From sequence record NC_073076.1: a DNA stretch of 44,417 nucleotides. One strand, written 5' to 3'. Of the stretch, positions 1-44,417 are shown one piece after another. The translations under genes and the position numbers were made by a program. The notes under the pieces are model-generated. The model was not told where the DNA came from. It saw only the letters and a program-made list of their open reading frames with translations, and did not search any database. The number at the start of each line of letters is the position of its first letter. Within the stretch, counting starts at the first letter, position 1. The stretch comes from Escherichia phage jat.

Positions 1-1
1 T

Positions 2-271
2 AAGCCACGCGGTCGCATAGACTACCCTGCGGACCACGATTTCTGCAAGCGCCTGGACCGTAACGACAAGGCCCGCCGTGAGTTGCGGGCTAAGTATGAC
101 GCGTTCAAACTAACTGTTACCGGCGTGCTGGATATACACAATACCGATAAGAAGCTGATCAAGGCATGGCCCGAAGTTGAGCAATTCATCCCTTACCAGG
201 ACAAGCCAAAATCCACGGCGGTGGCGCTGGATGTGAAAACACTCAACGAGATTTGCGGCATTCCTCGCTAA
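2..271 (+). CDS. hypothetical protein, 5'-truncated at window start (C-terminal part)
   Basis: Frame open from nt 2 to TAA at 269-271; same frame as the 3'-truncated ORF 43942-44417 if the window is circularly joined; followed by hairpin terminator. Confidence 0.4.
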   Translation, partial: KPRGRIDYPADHDFCKRLDRNDKARRELRAKYDAFKLTVTGVLDIHNTDKKLIKAWPEVEQFIPYQDKPKSTAVALDVKTLNEICGIPR

Positions 272-6689: not shown

Positions 6690-6750
6690 CTTGATTACTC
6701 CTCTCGTTGATTGGTTGCGGTATGGCCTCTATGTTGGTTGCGAGTCAAGC

Positions 6751-9511: not shown

Positions 9512-9991
9512 TTATTTCGCAAGCTGGGCGAATAGCTCACGCTGGGCTTTAATCCTGGCGACGTTTGTCACTGCCTTCTCGCCAATACCGAAGCGATAAG
9601 CCAGGCGCTCACGGGAGAATGCCAGCGCGTATTCATGGATTGCCTTACGCAGCGGACCCAGGTCATCCATGCTGGCGTCCATATCGTCTAGCGCACACAT
9701 GATTGACTGGTATGCCAGTGTCGCAAACTGGCGCGCACGGTCTACGTTGCCGTTCAGCGCCTTCGCTTCGTTCAGCTTTGCCAGGGCCAGTGAGTAATTC
9801 CAGATTAGTGCTCTCATTGTTCGGTCCTTCTTAGTGTTGTCGTCAACAATCGAGGCTTTACCGGAATTAACACGAATCATCACATCGTCCAGGGTAGACA
9901 TGCAAGTCGCCCCGCTTTCATAGGTGCCCGGGTCGTTGCTGGTGAAGGTGATAGTTGATTTACCGTCTTTGATGGTTACTGGAAATTTCAT
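9512..9991 (-). CDS. hypothetical protein
   Basis: 159 aa ORF; first gene downstream of the 9992-10473 intergenic region. Confidence 0.5.
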   Translation of the reverse strand: MKFPVTIKDGKSTITFTSNDPGTYESGATCMSTLDDVMIRVNSGKASIVDDNTKKDRTMRALIWNYSLALAKLNEAKALNGNVDRARQFATLAYQSIMCALDDMDASMDDLGPLRKAIHEYALAFSRERLAYRFGIGEKAVTNVARIKAQRELFAQLAK

Positions 9992-10206
9992 TTTGTTTGG
10001 TCCTCTCGTTGGTGTGCAACCAATCTAGCAGGGTGCCAGGCTGAATGCAACCAATATTAATCATGCGTATGAAAAAGTTGATCGCTATCTGCTGTGGCTG
10101 CAAACTGCATTTCCCGCCCGCCATTCTGCAACTCGCATTGGTTGCCTAGTTCACCGACGACCGCAATTTACATCATGTTGCCGTGTATTATGCAATCCCC
10201 GGATTT

Positions 10207-10372
10207 TATTCAGTCTCAGACGAGGGGGGCCATTGACCCCCGTCTAGTCTGAAAGACTGGGCTTTGTCCCGCTTGTCCCGCTCCTCTGGAAGCCGCGCCA
10301 TCCGGGGCGGGACGGGGGTGCTGTCCCGCTTTGTCCCGCCCCTTGTTTGTCCCGCTTTTTGTCCCGCTCAGT
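10207..10372. repeat. iteron element copy A: long imperfect hairpin plus six TGTCCCGC octamers
   Basis: Hairpin cagtctcagacgaggggggccattgacccccgtctagtctgaaagactg (10212-10259) followed by TGTCCCGC at 10265, 10274, 10323, 10334, 10349, 10361 and one inverted copy GCGGGAC at 10309; about 85 percent identical to 37643-37802. Confidence 0.65.
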
Positions 10373-10473
10373 TTATTCAGTTTTATTGCATAACTATTCA
10401 TTATACTCACACTACACGGCAACCAATACGACCAGATAAAAACACTCAAAATGGCAACCAATGCGCGCAAAAT

Positions 10474-22792: not shown

Positions 22793-22827
22793 ATTGGTTG
22801 CATAATTAGATTGGTTGCATTATCTTA

Positions 22828-22858
22828 AGGGTGTCCGGTTGGACGCCTTTTTTTTTTA
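22828..22858 (+). terminator. rho-independent terminator
   Basis: ggtgtcc/ggacgcc stem (one G-U) with ggtt loop followed by T10. Confidence 0.55.
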
Positions 22859-23584: not shown

Positions 23585-24056
23585 GCAGAAAGATAGCTGG
23601 CGCACACCGCCAGCTTTATTTAAACCGCTTCGTCGGAAGTACCGATTCCGTTACGATATGGCGGCGAGCGACGCCAACCACCTGCTACCGCGTTACTTCA
23701 CGGCAGAGCACAGCGCGCTTGATGTGGACTGGGCAGAGTTGAAAGGGTGGAAGTGGTGCAATCCGCCGTATTCCGACCCGCTGCCGTGGGTGGAATGCGC
23801 AGCGCACGGACGCCGGACTGTCATGCTACTGAACCAGGACACGTCGACGAAGTGGGCGAAGCTGGCCCGGAAGACTGCAAACCTGATAATTCTTCTGGAC
23901 TGGCGGATTAGATTCATTCACGCCGTCACCGGCGAAGTCGGGCCGAGCAATAACAAGTGCCAGCAATTGATAATCTTTGACGAAGCGCCGCCAATCGGCA
24001 GCGCACGAATTGAAATAATGAGCGAAGGAGAACTCCTTGAATATCTTAATCGTTGA
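23571..24056 (+). CDS. DNA N6-adenine methyltransferase (phage Dam-type)
   Basis: 161 aa; SWRTPPALF...DMAASDANHL...WCNPPYS signature of phage Dam methyltransferases. Confidence 0.8.
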   Translation: MTKNEQKDSWRTPPALFKPLRRKYRFRYDMAASDANHLLPRYFTAEHSALDVDWAELKGWKWCNPPYSDPLPWVECAAHGRRTVMLLNQDTSTKWAKLARKTANLIILLDWRIRFIHAVTGEVGPSNNKCQQLIIFDEAPPIGSARIEIMSEGELLEYLNR

Positions 24057-24261
24057 CCGCGACCCTGCGGTAGTAGACCGAATGCAAAGAGACTATAACA
24101 TAGACCCGCGCCGCGATCGTGTGAAGCGAGTGTCACGTCCAGAATATATCCTGGGTATGGACCTCACCGGCTGGCTTGTCATAACCGCAAATTGGCATCT
24201 TGTGTGTAACAAGTTTTCCGCCAGAGTTGTTCGTTCGGATTTGGTTGAGGAATTAAAATGA
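24037..24261 (+). CDS. hypothetical protein
   Basis: 74 aa ORF overlapping neighbours at both ends. Confidence 0.35.
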   Translation: MNILIVDRDPAVVDRMQRDYNIDPRRDRVKRVSRPEYILGMDLTGWLVITANWHLVCNKFSARVVRSDLVEELK

Positions 24262-37578: not shown

Positions 37579-37642
37579 TATGCAGTCCCCTTTTTTATGC
37601 AGTTGCCGATGGATATTGTATCAGCGATTTCAAAACAAACCT

Positions 37643-37960
37643 TATTCAGTCTCAGACGAGGGGGCCATTGACCCCCGTCTAGTCTGAAAGACTGGGGTGC
37701 TGTCCCGCTGTCCCGATCGGCTGAAAACCGCGGCAGCACTGGCTGGGACGGGGTGCTGTCCCGCTTTGTCCCGCCTAGTGTTTGTCCCGCTTTTTGTCCC
37801 GTTTGTTTTATGCACGAAAACCGAATACGTATGCACTTTTGTGGGGTGGGACAAAACGGGACGTCCCGCTTGTCCCGCTTTTATATTATGCAATGGAAGT
37901 GAGTAGGTATGCAGTTTCACATGGGTGGGACAAAACGGGACGTCCCGTTTTGTCCCGCTT
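37643..37960. repeat. iteron element copy B plus two 45-bp direct repeats containing GGGACGTCCC
   Basis: Hairpin 37648-37694 and TGTCCCGC/TGTCCCGT octamers at 37701, 37709, 37757, 37767, 37783, 37795; direct repeats 37831-37880 and 37909-37960, each with palindrome GGGACGTCCC followed by TGTCCCGC. Confidence 0.65.
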
Positions 37961-42726: not shown

Positions 42727-43431
42727 TTACTCGTCGTCGCCCATCTTAGCGATGATTTCACCTGCCTGTTTCGTAAGGTCAGTGATACCGAAGCTGTGGC
42801 CCATAGTGATTTTCGACTTCACATCTTCGACAACCTGCGTCGGTTTGCTAGGCGCGCCGCCGGCTGGCGTGCCAGCCAGGACGGATGCAAAATCGGCGTT
42901 ATTACGGAACTCTTTTTCTAACTCTTCCATAGTCAGCGCGGACGGTTTGCCATCCTGCAAGACTCGCACTTTCAAGCTGCCGTCTTCGCCGTCTTCCAGC
43001 GTCAGGCGGTCCATAACGTGACGTTGCATGATGCCTGCATTCTTACCGAACAGCTTCGACGCCAGGTCTTTGGCAGCGCTGCCGATGGTTAGATCGTGGA
43101 TCTGCTTGCGGTAGGCTTCTATTTTTCCCGATGTATCTGCTTCGTGTTTAGCAAACTTATCTTTCCAGGACTTGTCGATCGCTTCGAGGTCGCCATTTTT
43201 GCGCGCAGCGGCTTCCTCTTTCTCTTTCGCAAGTCGCTCGGCTTCGGCGCGGCGTTCAGCTTCTGCTTTCTTCTCGCTCACCAGCTTCGCGTTGTTGTCT
43301 TTCAGACCCTTGATTTCCGCCTGTACTTCTTCTGCGGTCATGAAAGTTGATTTATACCCGTCGCCATCGGCAACAAAAAGCGCCTTCATACCTTCCGGCA
43401 ACGCGTCATATTCTGCTTTAGTAAGTTTCAT
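42727..43431 (-). CDS. scaffolding protein (putative)
   Basis: 234 aa from ATG 43431 (GGGGGA SD; track ORF extends to 43545); Ala/Glu/Lys-rich coiled coil AEAERRAEAERLAKEKEEAAARK; immediately upstream of capsid gene. Confidence 0.5.
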   Translation of the reverse strand: MKLTKAEYDALPEGMKALFVADGDGYKSTFMTAEEVQAEIKGLKDNNAKLVSEKKAEAERRAEAERLAKEKEEAAARKNGDLEAIDKSWKDKFAKHEADTSGKIEAYRKQIHDLTIGSAAKDLASKLFGKNAGIMQRHVMDRLTLEDGEDGSLKVRVLQDGKPSALTMEELEKEFRNNADFASVLAGTPAGGAPSKPTQVVEDVKSKITMGHSFGITDLTKQAGEIIAKMGDDE

Positions 43432-43520
43432 GCTATCCCCCTGGGATTGTGGCAGAGCAGGCCACCCGCTCGACTTCACGCTTCTAATATTATCAGCGAT
43501 AAAAATAATCGCAAAATTCG

Positions 43521-43560
43521 CTTGCATTGCGTATGTTGGTTGCATTATATTGGTTGCACA
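43521..43560 (+). promoter_or_regulatory. putative promoter region with two TTGGTTGCA motifs
   Basis: TTGCAT (43522-43527), about 18-bp spacer, TATATT; motif copies at 43535-43544 and 43549-43558; directly upstream of plus-strand gene 43587. Confidence 0.35.
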
Positions 43561-43586
43561 CCAACAGAGATATGAAGGAAAACAAA

Positions 43587-43901
43587 ATGACTAACATGAC
43601 CGTAGCAACTCCAGTAGACGCCGCAATGGCCCGTTTCAATAAAGCTACCGTAGCGAATACCTTTACCTTTCACGCAATGCGTAACGCGGAAGCGCTGAAT
43701 CTGTGCCAGAGCATGAATGCTTCCGAAGCGGCAAAAGCGGCGATCAACTCCGCAACATTCGATAATCCGGCTTGCGGCCTGGTTCCGGCATCTTTCATAA
43801 ACGCCCTGGTCGAAGCCTTTAACGATTTCATGTGCGTCGATGCCGTTGAAGCTGTATGTGCCCGCTTAACTTCCACCGGTGGCAACATCAAATTCAACTA
43901 A
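43587..43901 (+). CDS. hypothetical protein
   Basis: 104 aa from ATG 43587 (GAAGGA SD); track ORF begins at 43527. Confidence 0.45.
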   Translation: MTNMTVATPVDAAMARFNKATVANTFTFHAMRNAEALNLCQSMNASEAAKAAINSATFDNPACGLVPASFINALVEAFNDFMCVDAVEAVCARLTSTGGNIKFN

Positions 43902-43941
43902 ACCAATCGGGGGCGAAAGCCCCTAAAATGAGGACATAAAA

Positions 43942-44417
43942 ATGAGACTGACGAAAGACATTAAAAATCAGATTCTGGCTAACATCCTGCGCGACCACGA
44001 AATCGCAACCGAAGCCAAACAAATCATGATGGACTCACGCGATCTGGCGTACGCAATCACGCTTGACTGTATGCCGGAAGGCATTCGCACGTTCGCCGAG
44101 CTACTTGCGCGCATTGAAGCAATCGGCGATGACCCGTCGCAGATGTACGACGTTTGCGTATACACCAACAAGGCGACGTATAGTTATAACACCGACCGCC
44201 CGAAAGGTATCGGCAGCGTTTACGACGCCACTTTCGAAATCAACGCAGGCGGAAACGTTCGCACCTTGTCCTTGAGCGGTGACGGTTACCAATACCGCGT
44301 ACATCGCGGATACTGGGAATATAAATACATGAATAAGCTATCTCCCGATCTCGGCGATATCGTACCGGGGTTCGAGGAAGTTATGCTGGCTTCGGTGTGT
44401 GAAGTGGACAAGGACGG
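43942..44417 (+). CDS. hypothetical protein, 3'-truncated at window end
   Basis: ATG 43942 with GAGGA SD; frame open for 158 codons to the last base of the window; not in ORF track because there is no stop. Confidence 0.45.
   Translation, partial: MRLTKDIKNQILANILRDHEIATEAKQIMMDSRDLAYAITLDCMPEGIRTFAELLARIEAIGDDPSQMYDVCVYTNKATYSYNTDRPKGIGSVYDATFEINAGGNVRTLSLSGDGYQYRVHRGYWEYKYMNKLSPDLGDIVPGFEEVMLASVCEVDKD

Follow-up and report, generated by a model that had tools for sequence, protein, structure and literature searches.

The nmad5 gene of a Dhillonvirus genome, divided by the ends of its record, lies in a self-contained plus-strand unit with a variable ORF1 slot

In the genus Dhillonvirus the gene nmad5 (CDS7 of SM_A8, CDS6 of SMS22) has been described at a locus "near the capsid gene" by Yamashita et al. 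(Commun Biol 2025; PMC11846954), who reported that its deletion is viable, that the cloned gene is toxic and that K216E/K296E escapes the Tmn defence while the nmad5 deletion does not, and who called Nmad5 a DNA modification enzyme. The same family, PF18757, occurs in the Yuavirus/M6-like phages of Pseudomonas, where nmad5 is placed between aGPT-Pplase1 and a thymidylate-synthase homologue, co-oriented within a thymidine-hypermodification cluster that also holds aGPT-Pplase2, a kinase and radical-SAM-type and PLP-type enzymes. In lambdoid and Stx-converting phages (HK24401 of HK244 and PhiR12_2 are examples) an Nmad5-like accessory gene immediately follows N in the delayed-early pL operon. Another homologue is part of a replication operon, upstream of exonuclease, SSB and DNA polymerase genes, and further homologues adjoin HD, YAcAr and NADAR genes. 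The morons of lambdoid phages, in the Juhala/Hendrix concept, are additional genes, each equipped with a promoter and a terminator, that are situated between conserved genes.

The stretch of DNA analysed here (the window) is the 44,417-nucleotide record NC_073076.1 of Escherichia phage jat. Comparison with 154 matching related phage records, the best of them 99% identical, showed that the window is a near-complete genome of an E. coli phage of the genus Dhillonvirus (HK578-like coliphages), cut by the assembly inside one gene and lacking 18 bp. The nearest relatives of its first 20 kb are CS16 and Maverick (about 95%). An open reading frame beginning at 43942 runs for 476 nt to the window end, base 1 completes its split codon, and the frame continues to a stop codon at 269-271. 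When the end of the window was joined to its start and translated, as the sequence-only reading had advised, an uninterrupted 248-aa frame was obtained, in frame and without a stop.

The proposal that the two truncated reading frames are a single gene, and that the window amounts in essence to a whole genome opened within it, was thus borne out: the alignments of the relatives span the junction, which is uninterrupted in 91 of 93 related records. The predicted length of about 248 aa needs correction. The order and the frame of the two ends are as in the relatives, with neither a frameshift nor a stop at the junction, but JLBYU60 and Zumzum, both 99% identical to the 5' part of the gene, carry 18 additional bases, AAAATCGCTGCCGATCTA (KSLPIY), between window positions 44417 and 1, and the gene has 254 codons in intact relatives. 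The ends of the record UHP65 are identical to those of the window base for base and leave the same 18-nt gap, and the two genomes, 93.8% identical overall, are collinear with only five tiny indels. The window ends are an assembly artefact common to both records, each of which was opened within a gene and lacks 18 bp, a point for curation. A terminal direct repeat of 5-399 bases was not found in the window. Published PhageTerm analyses of the genus indicate headful packaging or circularly permuted termini, and one report proposed a 10-nt cos elsewhere, ATCTTAAGGG, which corresponds to about position 22822 of the window. In the GenBank record of UHP65 nmad5 is unannotated, because that record was opened inside the gene with the 18 bp absent.

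Analysis of the region around the junction revealed two plus-strand genes and not three, ORF1 (43587-43901) and the joined nmad5 (43942..44417, comprising codons 1-158 and two bases, and 1..271), transcribed, as had been claimed, in opposite direction to the flanking late genes. These are the scaffold gene (42727-43431) on one side and Rz1 (286-525), Rz (398-727) and the MuF-like gene (720-1823) on the other, all on the minus strand. The cassette is a self-contained unit in which a control region with two TTGGTTGCA boxes is followed by a variable slot, by nmad5 and by a terminator common with Rz1. The hairpin that had been placed near 276-299 is real and terminator-like; it occupies 277-297, between the convergent nmad5 (+) and Rz1 (-), and its 8-bp stem with six G-C pairs is stable on both strands (-15.9 kcal/mol on the plus and -17.6 kcal/mol on the minus strand). 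On the minus strand the stem is followed by UUUUCC, and the T-tract of the plus strand is interrupted (UUAAUUAUUUG). A G+C-rich stem-loop with a T-rich tract is what defines an intrinsic, rho-independent terminator, and the element, which is kept in a lineage with only 64% Nmad5 protein identity, would be expected to act bidirectionally. A second small G+C-rich hairpin (GGGGGC GAAA GCCCCU; -12.4 kcal/mol, z -2.5) is located in the gap between ORF1 and nmad5 at 43909..43924 (+) without a T-run on the plus strand; it is deleted along with ORF1 in the genomes lacking that gene and is part of the ORF1 module. A scan of the whole window against Rfam detected no known RNA family, and the 5' leader, considered as a structured RNA, was no more stable than shuffled sequence (z -0.75).

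The large cassette gene, previously read as being of unknown function, belongs to phrog_1965 and is a full-length member of the Nmad5 family that has already been studied in Dhillonvirus (PMC11846954); in this respect the finding is ordinary and largely known. The match to PF18757 covered profile positions 1-206 of 206 (E 6.7e-59), with 199.8 bits for the restored 254-aa protein and 200.9 bits for the 248-aa join of the window, against a curated gathering cut-off of 27 bits. Each half alone also exceeded this value, the 5' part at positions 1-115 (82 bits) and the 3' part at positions 122-206 (109.6 bits), which leaves six profile positions absent. The six missing codons include K160 and P163, conserved in the family as computed on 112 members, and the window protein has the family-conserved residues G104, T213, L217, W221-P222-E223, P229, L246-N247, G251 and P253 without exception. 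Residue K216 (in DKKLIKAW; K210 of the 248-aa join) is wild type in the window and invariant in alignment A1.

Full-length nmad5 was identified in 146 phage records, nearly all of them Dhillonvirus, and in the lineage with 64% protein identity it lies in the same place with the same control region and terminator. Its GC content of 52.3% is to be compared with 54.5% for the genome and 50.8% for ORF1, and the GC3 of the cassette genes falls within the range of the neighbouring genes. The gene also decays in nature: ten or more distinct alleles carry a deletion or a frameshift. A cost or detectability of nmad5 could explain why so many such alleles occur.

ORF1 encodes a protein of 104 aa preceded by the ribosome-binding sequence AAGGA 7 nt upstream. 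Its residues 1-104 matched positions 6-109 of 109 of phrog_24635 (E 1.1e-67), a family whose function is not known; it had no Pfam match, and its AF2 model was unusable (pLDDT 50.6). The gene was found in 70 phage records, as against 146 for full-length nmad5; JLBYU60, Zumzum and UHP65 carry it, and Bas18, Maverick and L005-L007 lack it. In SM_W22 the slot between the leader and nmad5 is occupied by a 172-aa orphan with no Pfam or PHROG match. Homologues of ORF1 are placed in early regions of unrelated phages. ORF1 is thus a swappable passenger, and the conserved core consists of nmad5, the control region and the terminator. The earlier description of a moron-like insertion therefore suits ORF1, whose slot holds ORF1, another orphan or nothing, and does not suit nmad5, which is conserved in place down to 64% identity.

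The divergent intergenic control region, with the scaffold gene (minus strand) on one side and the cassette (plus strand) on the other (43432..43586; 43.9% GC), hardly varied among six Dhillonvirus genomes, although three kinds of slot content were represented in them. A scan requiring 9 of 12 consensus positions revealed no promoter site in it. With a relaxed scan two candidates were obtained, each with 8/12 matches. The first, TTGCAT-18 nt-TATATT at 43522..43551 (+), would serve the cassette as a weak promoter of sigma-70 type; the relatives retain both hexamers, with a spacer of 17 nt in SM_W22. The second, TTGCGA-16 nt-TAATAT at 43487..43514 (-), lies in a segment that is invariant in the alignment and may serve the scaffold/capsid/tail operon, for which a promoter is needed, since the cassette with its terminator stands between the operon and the late genes upstream.

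Two exact copies of TTGGTTGCA are located in this region, box 1 at 43536..43544 (+) in the spacer of the candidate cassette promoter and box 2 at 43550..43558 (+) covering the last bases of the candidate -10 and the region where transcription would probably start. Box 2 is followed by the conserved leader CACCAAC, and the same combination of box and leader, TTGGTTGCACACCAAC, precedes a minus-strand gene starting at 9991. The window contains 11 exact copies of TTGGTTGCA where 0.49 are expected, a number reached in none of 100 shuffles; most copies are intergenic and nearly all lie in the early/replication region, with no exact copy of the 9-mer elsewhere in the late half beyond the cassette. 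Of the 8-mer TTGGTTGC there are 21 copies where 1.3 would be expected, almost always outside gene calls: 17 lie between 6.7 and 27.5 kb, two belong to the cassette, and late tail genes contain the other two, TTGGTTGCC and TTGGTTGCG. Of the 19 box copies in Zumzum, 10 were located within the intergenic 4.2% of the genome. The boxes are not always co-oriented with the adjacent genes (6711/6734 on the plus strand, 16218/16234 on the minus strand).

The motifs upstream of the cassette had been called promoter-like, a term that is only partly apt. Their non-random occurrence was confirmed (11 against 0.49), and neither a match to the sigma-70 consensus nor a constant co-orientation with genes was found. 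A box for an operator or regulator, overlapping a weak promoter, seems to fit TTGGTTGCA better than a promoter motif does. A search of the literature for the TTGGTTGCA motif or for HK578 promoters returned nothing relevant within the collection covered. Host RNA polymerase would transcribe the cassette as a separate unit, starting at a weak promoter that the two boxes overlap, and most likely the cassette is regulated with the early or middle genes and not with the surrounding late head genes, because the same box is otherwise found almost only at the boundaries of early/replication transcription units.

Taken as a whole, we consider it reasonably probable that the record represents an assembly-cut Dhillonvirus genome in which a unit made up of a conserved nmad5 core and an ORF1 passenger is under early-type control, and in which Nmad5 is a non-enzymatic accessory protein. 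The protein is most likely non-structural, dispensable and toxic to the host, and would interfere with a host process or defence; it may be tied to Tmn immunity via residue K216. Since deletion of nmad5 gives no escape from Tmn, Nmad5 is not simply the Tmn trigger. A further-reaching version, which we advance only tentatively, is that TTGGTTGC(A) forms the putative box of a Dhillonvirus regulator or promoter class with an early regulon, that the nmad5 cassette is an early island, and that Nmad5 is an effector of new fold, without enzymatic activity, acting on a host defence or process, in which case the K216E change would alter that interaction and Tmn would not be triggered. Two other defence-related factors of Dhillonvirus were considered as residents of the cassette and rejected, Anti-Tmn being ORF35, elsewhere in the genome, and Ksap1 being a 74-aa protein whose gene has a methyltransferase gene on one side and a phosphatase gene on the other.

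Probably Nmad5 is not a DNA-base-modifying enzyme, and the label of DNA modification enzyme is unsupported in Dhillonvirus at the structural, residue and genomic levels. The contrary possibility is that Nmad5 takes part in a pathway that modifies DNA or nucleotides, for instance as a targeting or accessory subunit working with phage methyltransferases or host enzymes, and that Tmn senses the modified DNA. This is how the authors of PMC11846954 interpreted it, and it agrees with the name of the Pfam family, which was given for its association with modification genes, with the position of the Yuavirus/M6-like gene and with the two DNA methyltransferases encoded by Dhillonviruses. The latter are, however, about 20 kb away from the cassette, and none of the hypermodification genes (aGPT-Pplase, 5-hmdU DNA kinase, pyrimidine hydroxymethylase, radical-SAM/PLP) is annotated anywhere in Zumzum, which is 99% identical across the cassette. 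Modification neighbours are likewise lacking in lambdoid, C130_2-like and other phages. The confident model of Nmad5 matched no solved fold, enzymes included, which may still leave room for a new enzyme, but the residues conserved across the family are mainly G, L, W and P, together with T213, E223 and N247, mostly of structural type, and judged from the alignment they do not look catalytic. The unchanged Tmn sensitivity of the nmad5 deletion is also hard to square with the sensing of an Nmad5-dependent modification. We therefore regard a modification role as unlikely, though it is the best-surviving of the alternatives.

Somewhat less likely still is that the whole two-gene cassette is a classic moron inserted recently, by horizontal transfer, between Rz1 and the scaffold gene. 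Its opposite orientation, its own control region and terminator, the polymorphic ORF1 slot and the ORF1 homologues in unrelated phages would all agree with such an origin. In addition, the cassette is 99% identical to that of JLBYU60, whereas the first 20 kb are closest to CS16 and Maverick, the latter without ORF1, and this juxtaposition indicates recombinational exchange. A recent insertion is nevertheless difficult to reconcile with the occurrence of full-length nmad5 in so many phage records, with the lineage of 64% identity, in which its position, control region and terminator are the same, and with its unremarkable GC and GC3. No related genome was seen in which Rz1 simply adjoins the scaffold gene, and the nmad5-defective relatives that were seen carry internal deletions or frameshifts. 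The comparison of related phages indicated that nmad5 is conserved at the locus and that it is the ORF1 slot whose content is present, absent or replaced.

Returning to the ends of the record, it is improbable that the 248-aa form is genuine, with a real in-frame loss of 18 bp from nmad5 in both this phage and UHP65 and with assemblies that merely happened to be opened there. The join is in frame without a stop, its Pfam score is undiminished and nmad5 is prone to deletion in nature. The gap, however, falls precisely at the ends of the records of two different phages, where a biological deletion would give an assembly no reason to open. The absent residues, two of which are conserved in the family, lie within the confidently modelled part of the protein (pLDDT 93-95), and this deletion recurs in no other of the 93 records.

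Even less credence can be given to the window ends as true physical ends of the genome, such as would arise if library preparation had removed a single-stranded cos overhang of about 18 nt. Such ends would account for two isolates terminating at the same bases, with identical ends and an identical gap despite an overall identity of only 93.8%, and two metagenomic deletion alleles have left breakpoints at most 12 nt from the window end. On the contrary, the published PhageTerm work favours headful packaging or circular permutation, with the one proposed cos elsewhere; more than 90 records assemble through the site, which is inside a coding sequence and 3-5 kb from the terminase genes; and the near-absence of indels between the window and UHP65 suggests that a template or pipeline was common to both. 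The boundaries are also unlikely to be a breakage hotspot, the remaining deletion breakpoints being scattered along nmad5. An assembly artefact is accordingly retained as the explanation of the ends.

A role of the cassette in the virion or in head assembly, for which the only argument is that the MuF-like/spanin genes lie on one side of it and the scaffold gene on the other, is largely refuted by its opposite orientation with its own control region and terminator, by the viability of the nmad5 deletion mutant, by the early regions in which homologues are found elsewhere and by the proteomics of phage EE09, in whose lysate CDS32 (nmad5) was not among the 24 proteins found while the neighbours CDS29, 30, 34 and 35 were detected.

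The locus matters in that few accessory genes of Dhillonvirus have, like nmad5, a phenotype related to defence (Tmn escape). The gene is part of a stand-alone unit that is conserved and whose control region looks early-type, and it repeatedly decays in nature. Both the unit and the over-represented TTGGTTGCA box are relevant to gene regulation in Dhillonvirus and to the engineering of phages for therapy.

Compared with the described systems, the cassette resembles the lambdoid morons as a self-contained unit of opposite orientation within the late block, ended by a terminator, and in the presence, absence and replacement of ORF1. It differs from them in that nmad5 is genus-wide and not deviant in base composition, and in that Dhillonviruses are virulent, so that the rationale of expression from a prophage does not apply. 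The Nmad5-like protein of the lambdoid and Stx-converting phages is homologous in its C-terminal half (33-35% identity over about 100 aa), and its place in a delayed-early operon fits the early-type control proposed for the cassette; on the other hand it has about 207 aa as against 254, and its gene lies within a long operon of temperate phages and does not stand alone. With the Yuavirus/M6-like Nmad5 the window protein shares the motif T..(K)L...WPE...P...LN...G.P, the C-terminal 80 or so residues being 35-40% identical, but the genes of the hypermodification cluster are absent and nmad5 is accompanied only by an optional small ORF, in the late region and on the opposite strand. The closest counterparts are SM_A8 and SMS22, which carry the same gene at the same locus: in SM_A8, CDS7 is Nmad5 and CDS9 the head scaffolding protein, with 93.6% identity over the whole 1018-base cassette query. 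The window copy, although split by the record ends and short of six codons, is of the same length class (254 aa), lies near the scaffold gene as a member of the Nmad5 family and retains the wild-type escape residue K216.

Analysis of the nucleotide sequence confirmed the layout described in the sequence-only reading. ORF1 (43587-43901, plus strand, 104 aa) is followed by a second plus-strand ORF, nmad5, which starts at 43942 and runs for 476 nt before the record stops; base 1 fills the split codon and the same frame continues to a stop at 269-271. As had been claimed, the truncated ORFs at the two ends join in frame with no stop, giving one uninterrupted ORF of 248 aa. The flanking genes, the scaffold gene (42727-43431), Rz1 and Rz (286-727) and a MuF-like gene (720-1823), all lie on the minus strand. 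The hairpin at 277-297 (8-bp stem with 6 G-C pairs) is stable on both strands (-15.9 and -17.6 kcal/mol), and the minus strand has a U-run. It could plausibly terminate transcription in both directions, from nmad5 and from Rz1, which converge on it.

A search with the 1018 bases at 43400-44417 matched 154 phage records. Nearly all belong to Escherichia phages in Dhillonvirus, the genus of HK578/SO-1-like siphoviruses; the closest were JLBYU60 and Zumzum (99%). The first 20 kb of the window matched 179 records, with CS16 and Maverick at the top (95%). Window size (44,417 bp) and composition (GC 54.5%) are those of a whole Dhillonvirus genome. The proposal of a full genome linearised inside a gene was upheld, but its ends do not close exactly. 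Alignment with JLBYU60 and Zumzum, in which nmad5 is internal to the record (765 nt, 254 aa), revealed that exactly 18 bases, AAAATCGCTGCCGATCTA (KSLPIY), are absent between the last and the first base. A probe of 300 bases spanning the intact junction matched 93 records, and 91 of them have it uninterrupted. Independently of any relative's sequence, the Pfam Nmad5 profile aligned to the end fragment at positions 1-115 and to the start fragment at 122-206, so that six positions are absent. The missing residues, among them K160 and P163, both conserved over 112 family members, fall in a confidently modelled part of Nmad5 (AlphaFold2). We judged the window ends to be artefacts of assembly, and nmad5 in reality to encode 254 aa, not 248.

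Phage UHP65 (PQ511047.1, 44,416 bp), one of the two probe-matched records lacking an uninterrupted junction, begins and ends on the same bases as the window and shares its gap. The two are collinear end to end at 93.8% identity, with 2,711 mismatches and five indels only (1-6 nt); so few indels and such matching ends point to one template or pipeline behind both records, possibly a reference-guided assembly. Since the UHP65 ends likewise cut within nmad5, the gene is unannotated there. The UHP65 scaffold gene is annotated too long, at 272 aa, and reaches over the control region. In published analyses Dhillonvirus packaging is headful and circularly permuted, while one analysis of the genus placed a 10-nt cos at another site. 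The "5' cos" predicted by PhageTerm for EE09, ATCTTAAGGG (10 nt, PMC10673088), falls within 22811-22831 of the window, where the TTGGTTGCA box at 22811 precedes it by 2 nt. The surrounding intergenic DNA, ~17 kb from the terminase genes, contains a pair of boxes along with a hairpin and a T-run. With the EE09 cos prediction set against headful packaging reported by other groups, the packaging mode of the genus looks unsettled.

Comparison of six genomes showed that the 155 bp from the scaffold start to the cassette are nearly invariant; in a lineage with Nmad5 of only 64% identity this control region can still be recognised, and the terminator hairpin is conserved as well. The genomes part ways directly 3' of the conserved leader ending in TTGGTTGCACACCAACA. 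The slot that follows holds ORF1 in the window, JLBYU60, Zumzum and UHP65, and in SM_W22 (locus L015, 613-1131) a 172-aa orphan unrelated to ORF1, which follows the same leader and ribosome-binding sequence and had no match in Pfam and PHROG searches. In Bas18/Oekolampad, Maverick and three metagenomic contigs the slot is empty, so that the ribosome-binding site of nmad5 comes immediately after the leader. ORF1 belongs to phrog_24635 (no known function) and had no match in Pfam; it was found in 70 phage records, and full-length nmad5 in 146. Its homologues in unrelated phages lie in early regions, where none of the neighbouring genes called was of the Nmad5 family. One homologue with 74% identity occurs in a 47-kb phage contig near adenylosuccinate-synthetase-like and HD (YfbR-like) genes (L013, 344-2287 and 5001-5309), a pair presumably resembling PurZ/DatZ of 2-aminoadenine-genome phages. 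Because the slot contents vary, ORF1 is rarer than nmad5 and its homologues occur in unrelated phages without Nmad5, ORF1 is a swappable, moron-like passenger. The conserved core comprises the control region, nmad5 and the terminator. The cassette, whose base composition is not deviant, had been described as a moron-like accessory insertion; this holds for it as an accessory unit and for ORF1, but not for the conserved nmad5, control region and terminator.

At least ten different nmad5 alleles in public assemblies and phage JL1, many of them independent, carry a deletion, fusion or frameshift (L005, 3001-3468; L006 and L007, 3001-3900; proteins P0054, P0060, P0062, P0068, P0072, P0073, P0093 and P0127). 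In one, ORF1 residues 1-45 are fused onto Nmad5 residues 213-254; JL1 retains only Nmad5 residues 1-54. Microhomologies of 3-6 nt occur at several deletions. Such frequent decay fits a dispensable, sometimes costly gene.

The 9-mer TTGGTTGCA, present in two copies upstream of ORF1, occurs exactly 11 times in the window (0.49 expected), and the 8-mer TTGGTTGC 21 times (1.3 expected), mostly paired 14-35 bp apart and nearly all outside gene calls. TTGGTTGC(A) was located at 6711, 6734, 9307, 10016, 10047, 10138, 10419, 10454, 13268, 16218, 16234, 19852, 22794, 22811, 24718, 24730, 27435, 43536 and 43550. Seventeen of the 21 8-mers lie at 6.7-27.5 kb, at lysis, early and replication transcription-unit boundaries; two, the variants TTGGTTGCC and TTGGTTGCG, are within late tail genes, and the only exact 9-mers of the late half are at the two cassette sites. 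UHP65 has 20 copies of the 8-mer and Zumzum 19, 10 of them in annotated intergenic DNA (4.2% of its genome). The gene-proximal box usually has TA.A just upstream, creating a -10-like TAGATT or TATATT, and the leader TTGGTTGCACACCAAC occurs both in the cassette and ahead of the minus-strand gene that begins at 9991. A strict sigma-70 scan of the cassette control region gave no site; a relaxed scan gave candidate promoters TTGCAT-18-TATATT for the cassette and TTGCGA-16-TAATAT for the scaffold operon. Since some box pairs point against the neighbouring genes, we infer that the box may be an operator or regulator site over weak promoters, not the promoter consensus itself. No published description of the motif was found in the literature searched. 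A direct repeat of ~175 bp (10206-10379 and 37642-37814, 86% identity), rich in TGTCCCG/GTCCCGC iterations, is intergenic in both copies, one preceding the helicase-primase gene and the other next to the tape-measure gene; it may represent an array of iteron-like or protein-binding sites.

The wrapped gene matches the full length of Pfam PF18757, "nucleotide modification associated domain 5" (E 6.7e-59, 206/206 profile positions), and phrog_1965. Searching 1.84 billion representative proteins with a family profile gave 514 members at E <= 0.001, typically of 190-230 aa, with conservation peaking in the C-terminal ~85 residues. The confident AlphaFold2 model (112 sequences; pLDDT 90.1, pTM 0.83) combines a bundle of helices at the N-terminus with a small sheet of four strands, a helix of 30 residues and, at the C-terminus, a compact helical motif; no similar fold was found among solved structures, and a BFVD search returned family members only. 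Nmad5 genes lie within the thymidine-hypermodification cluster in Yuavirus, immediately after N in the pL operon of lambdoid and Stx phages, in the replication operon of C130_2-like phages, upstream of lysis genes in a Serratia phage and, in another context, adjoining HD, YAcAr and NADAR genes. That Nmad5 is a "DNA modification enzyme" is unlikely, and nothing in the present analysis supported it: positions conserved family-wide are mostly G, L, W and P, those polar or charged after R2 being only T213, E223 and N247, so no catalytic set is obvious, and the annotation of Zumzum, 99% identical across the cassette, holds no hypermodification genes. Among the 24 proteins detected in EE09 lysate, Nmad5 (CDS32) was absent and its neighbours were present.

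The nmad5 of Dhillonviruses SM_A8 and SMS22 was placed "near the capsid gene" (Yamashita et al. 2025, PMC11846954). There the substitution K216E (K296E in SMS22) conferred escape from the host defence system Tmn, its reversion restored sensitivity, the nmad5-deleted phage was viable and still Tmn-sensitive, and the gene was uncloneable because toxic (PMC11846954). Taken with the contexts, structure, conservation and EE09 data, this toxicity, dispensability and gain-of-function escape allele make an early-class, non-structural accessory protein acting on a host process or defence the best reading of Nmad5. Anti-Tmn (ORF35) and Ksap1, the trigger of KpAvs2, are encoded at other loci of the genome; a 74-aa plus-strand ORF at 24037-24261, between adenine methyltransferase and phosphatase/kinase genes, agrees in position and length with what has been reported for Ksap1, the protein of Dhillonviruses that KpAvs2 senses (PMC11564622), and is a candidate for it. 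By-products of value are the genome-wide TTGGTTGCA box, the variable slot, the frequent nmad5 decay and the curation problem that UHP65 shares; these coordinates hold nothing categorically new. The large gene, once listed as of unknown function, is the nmad5 already studied in Dhillonviruses (PF18757; PMC11846954), and the window protein carries K216, invariant in the alignment of close and distant homologues.
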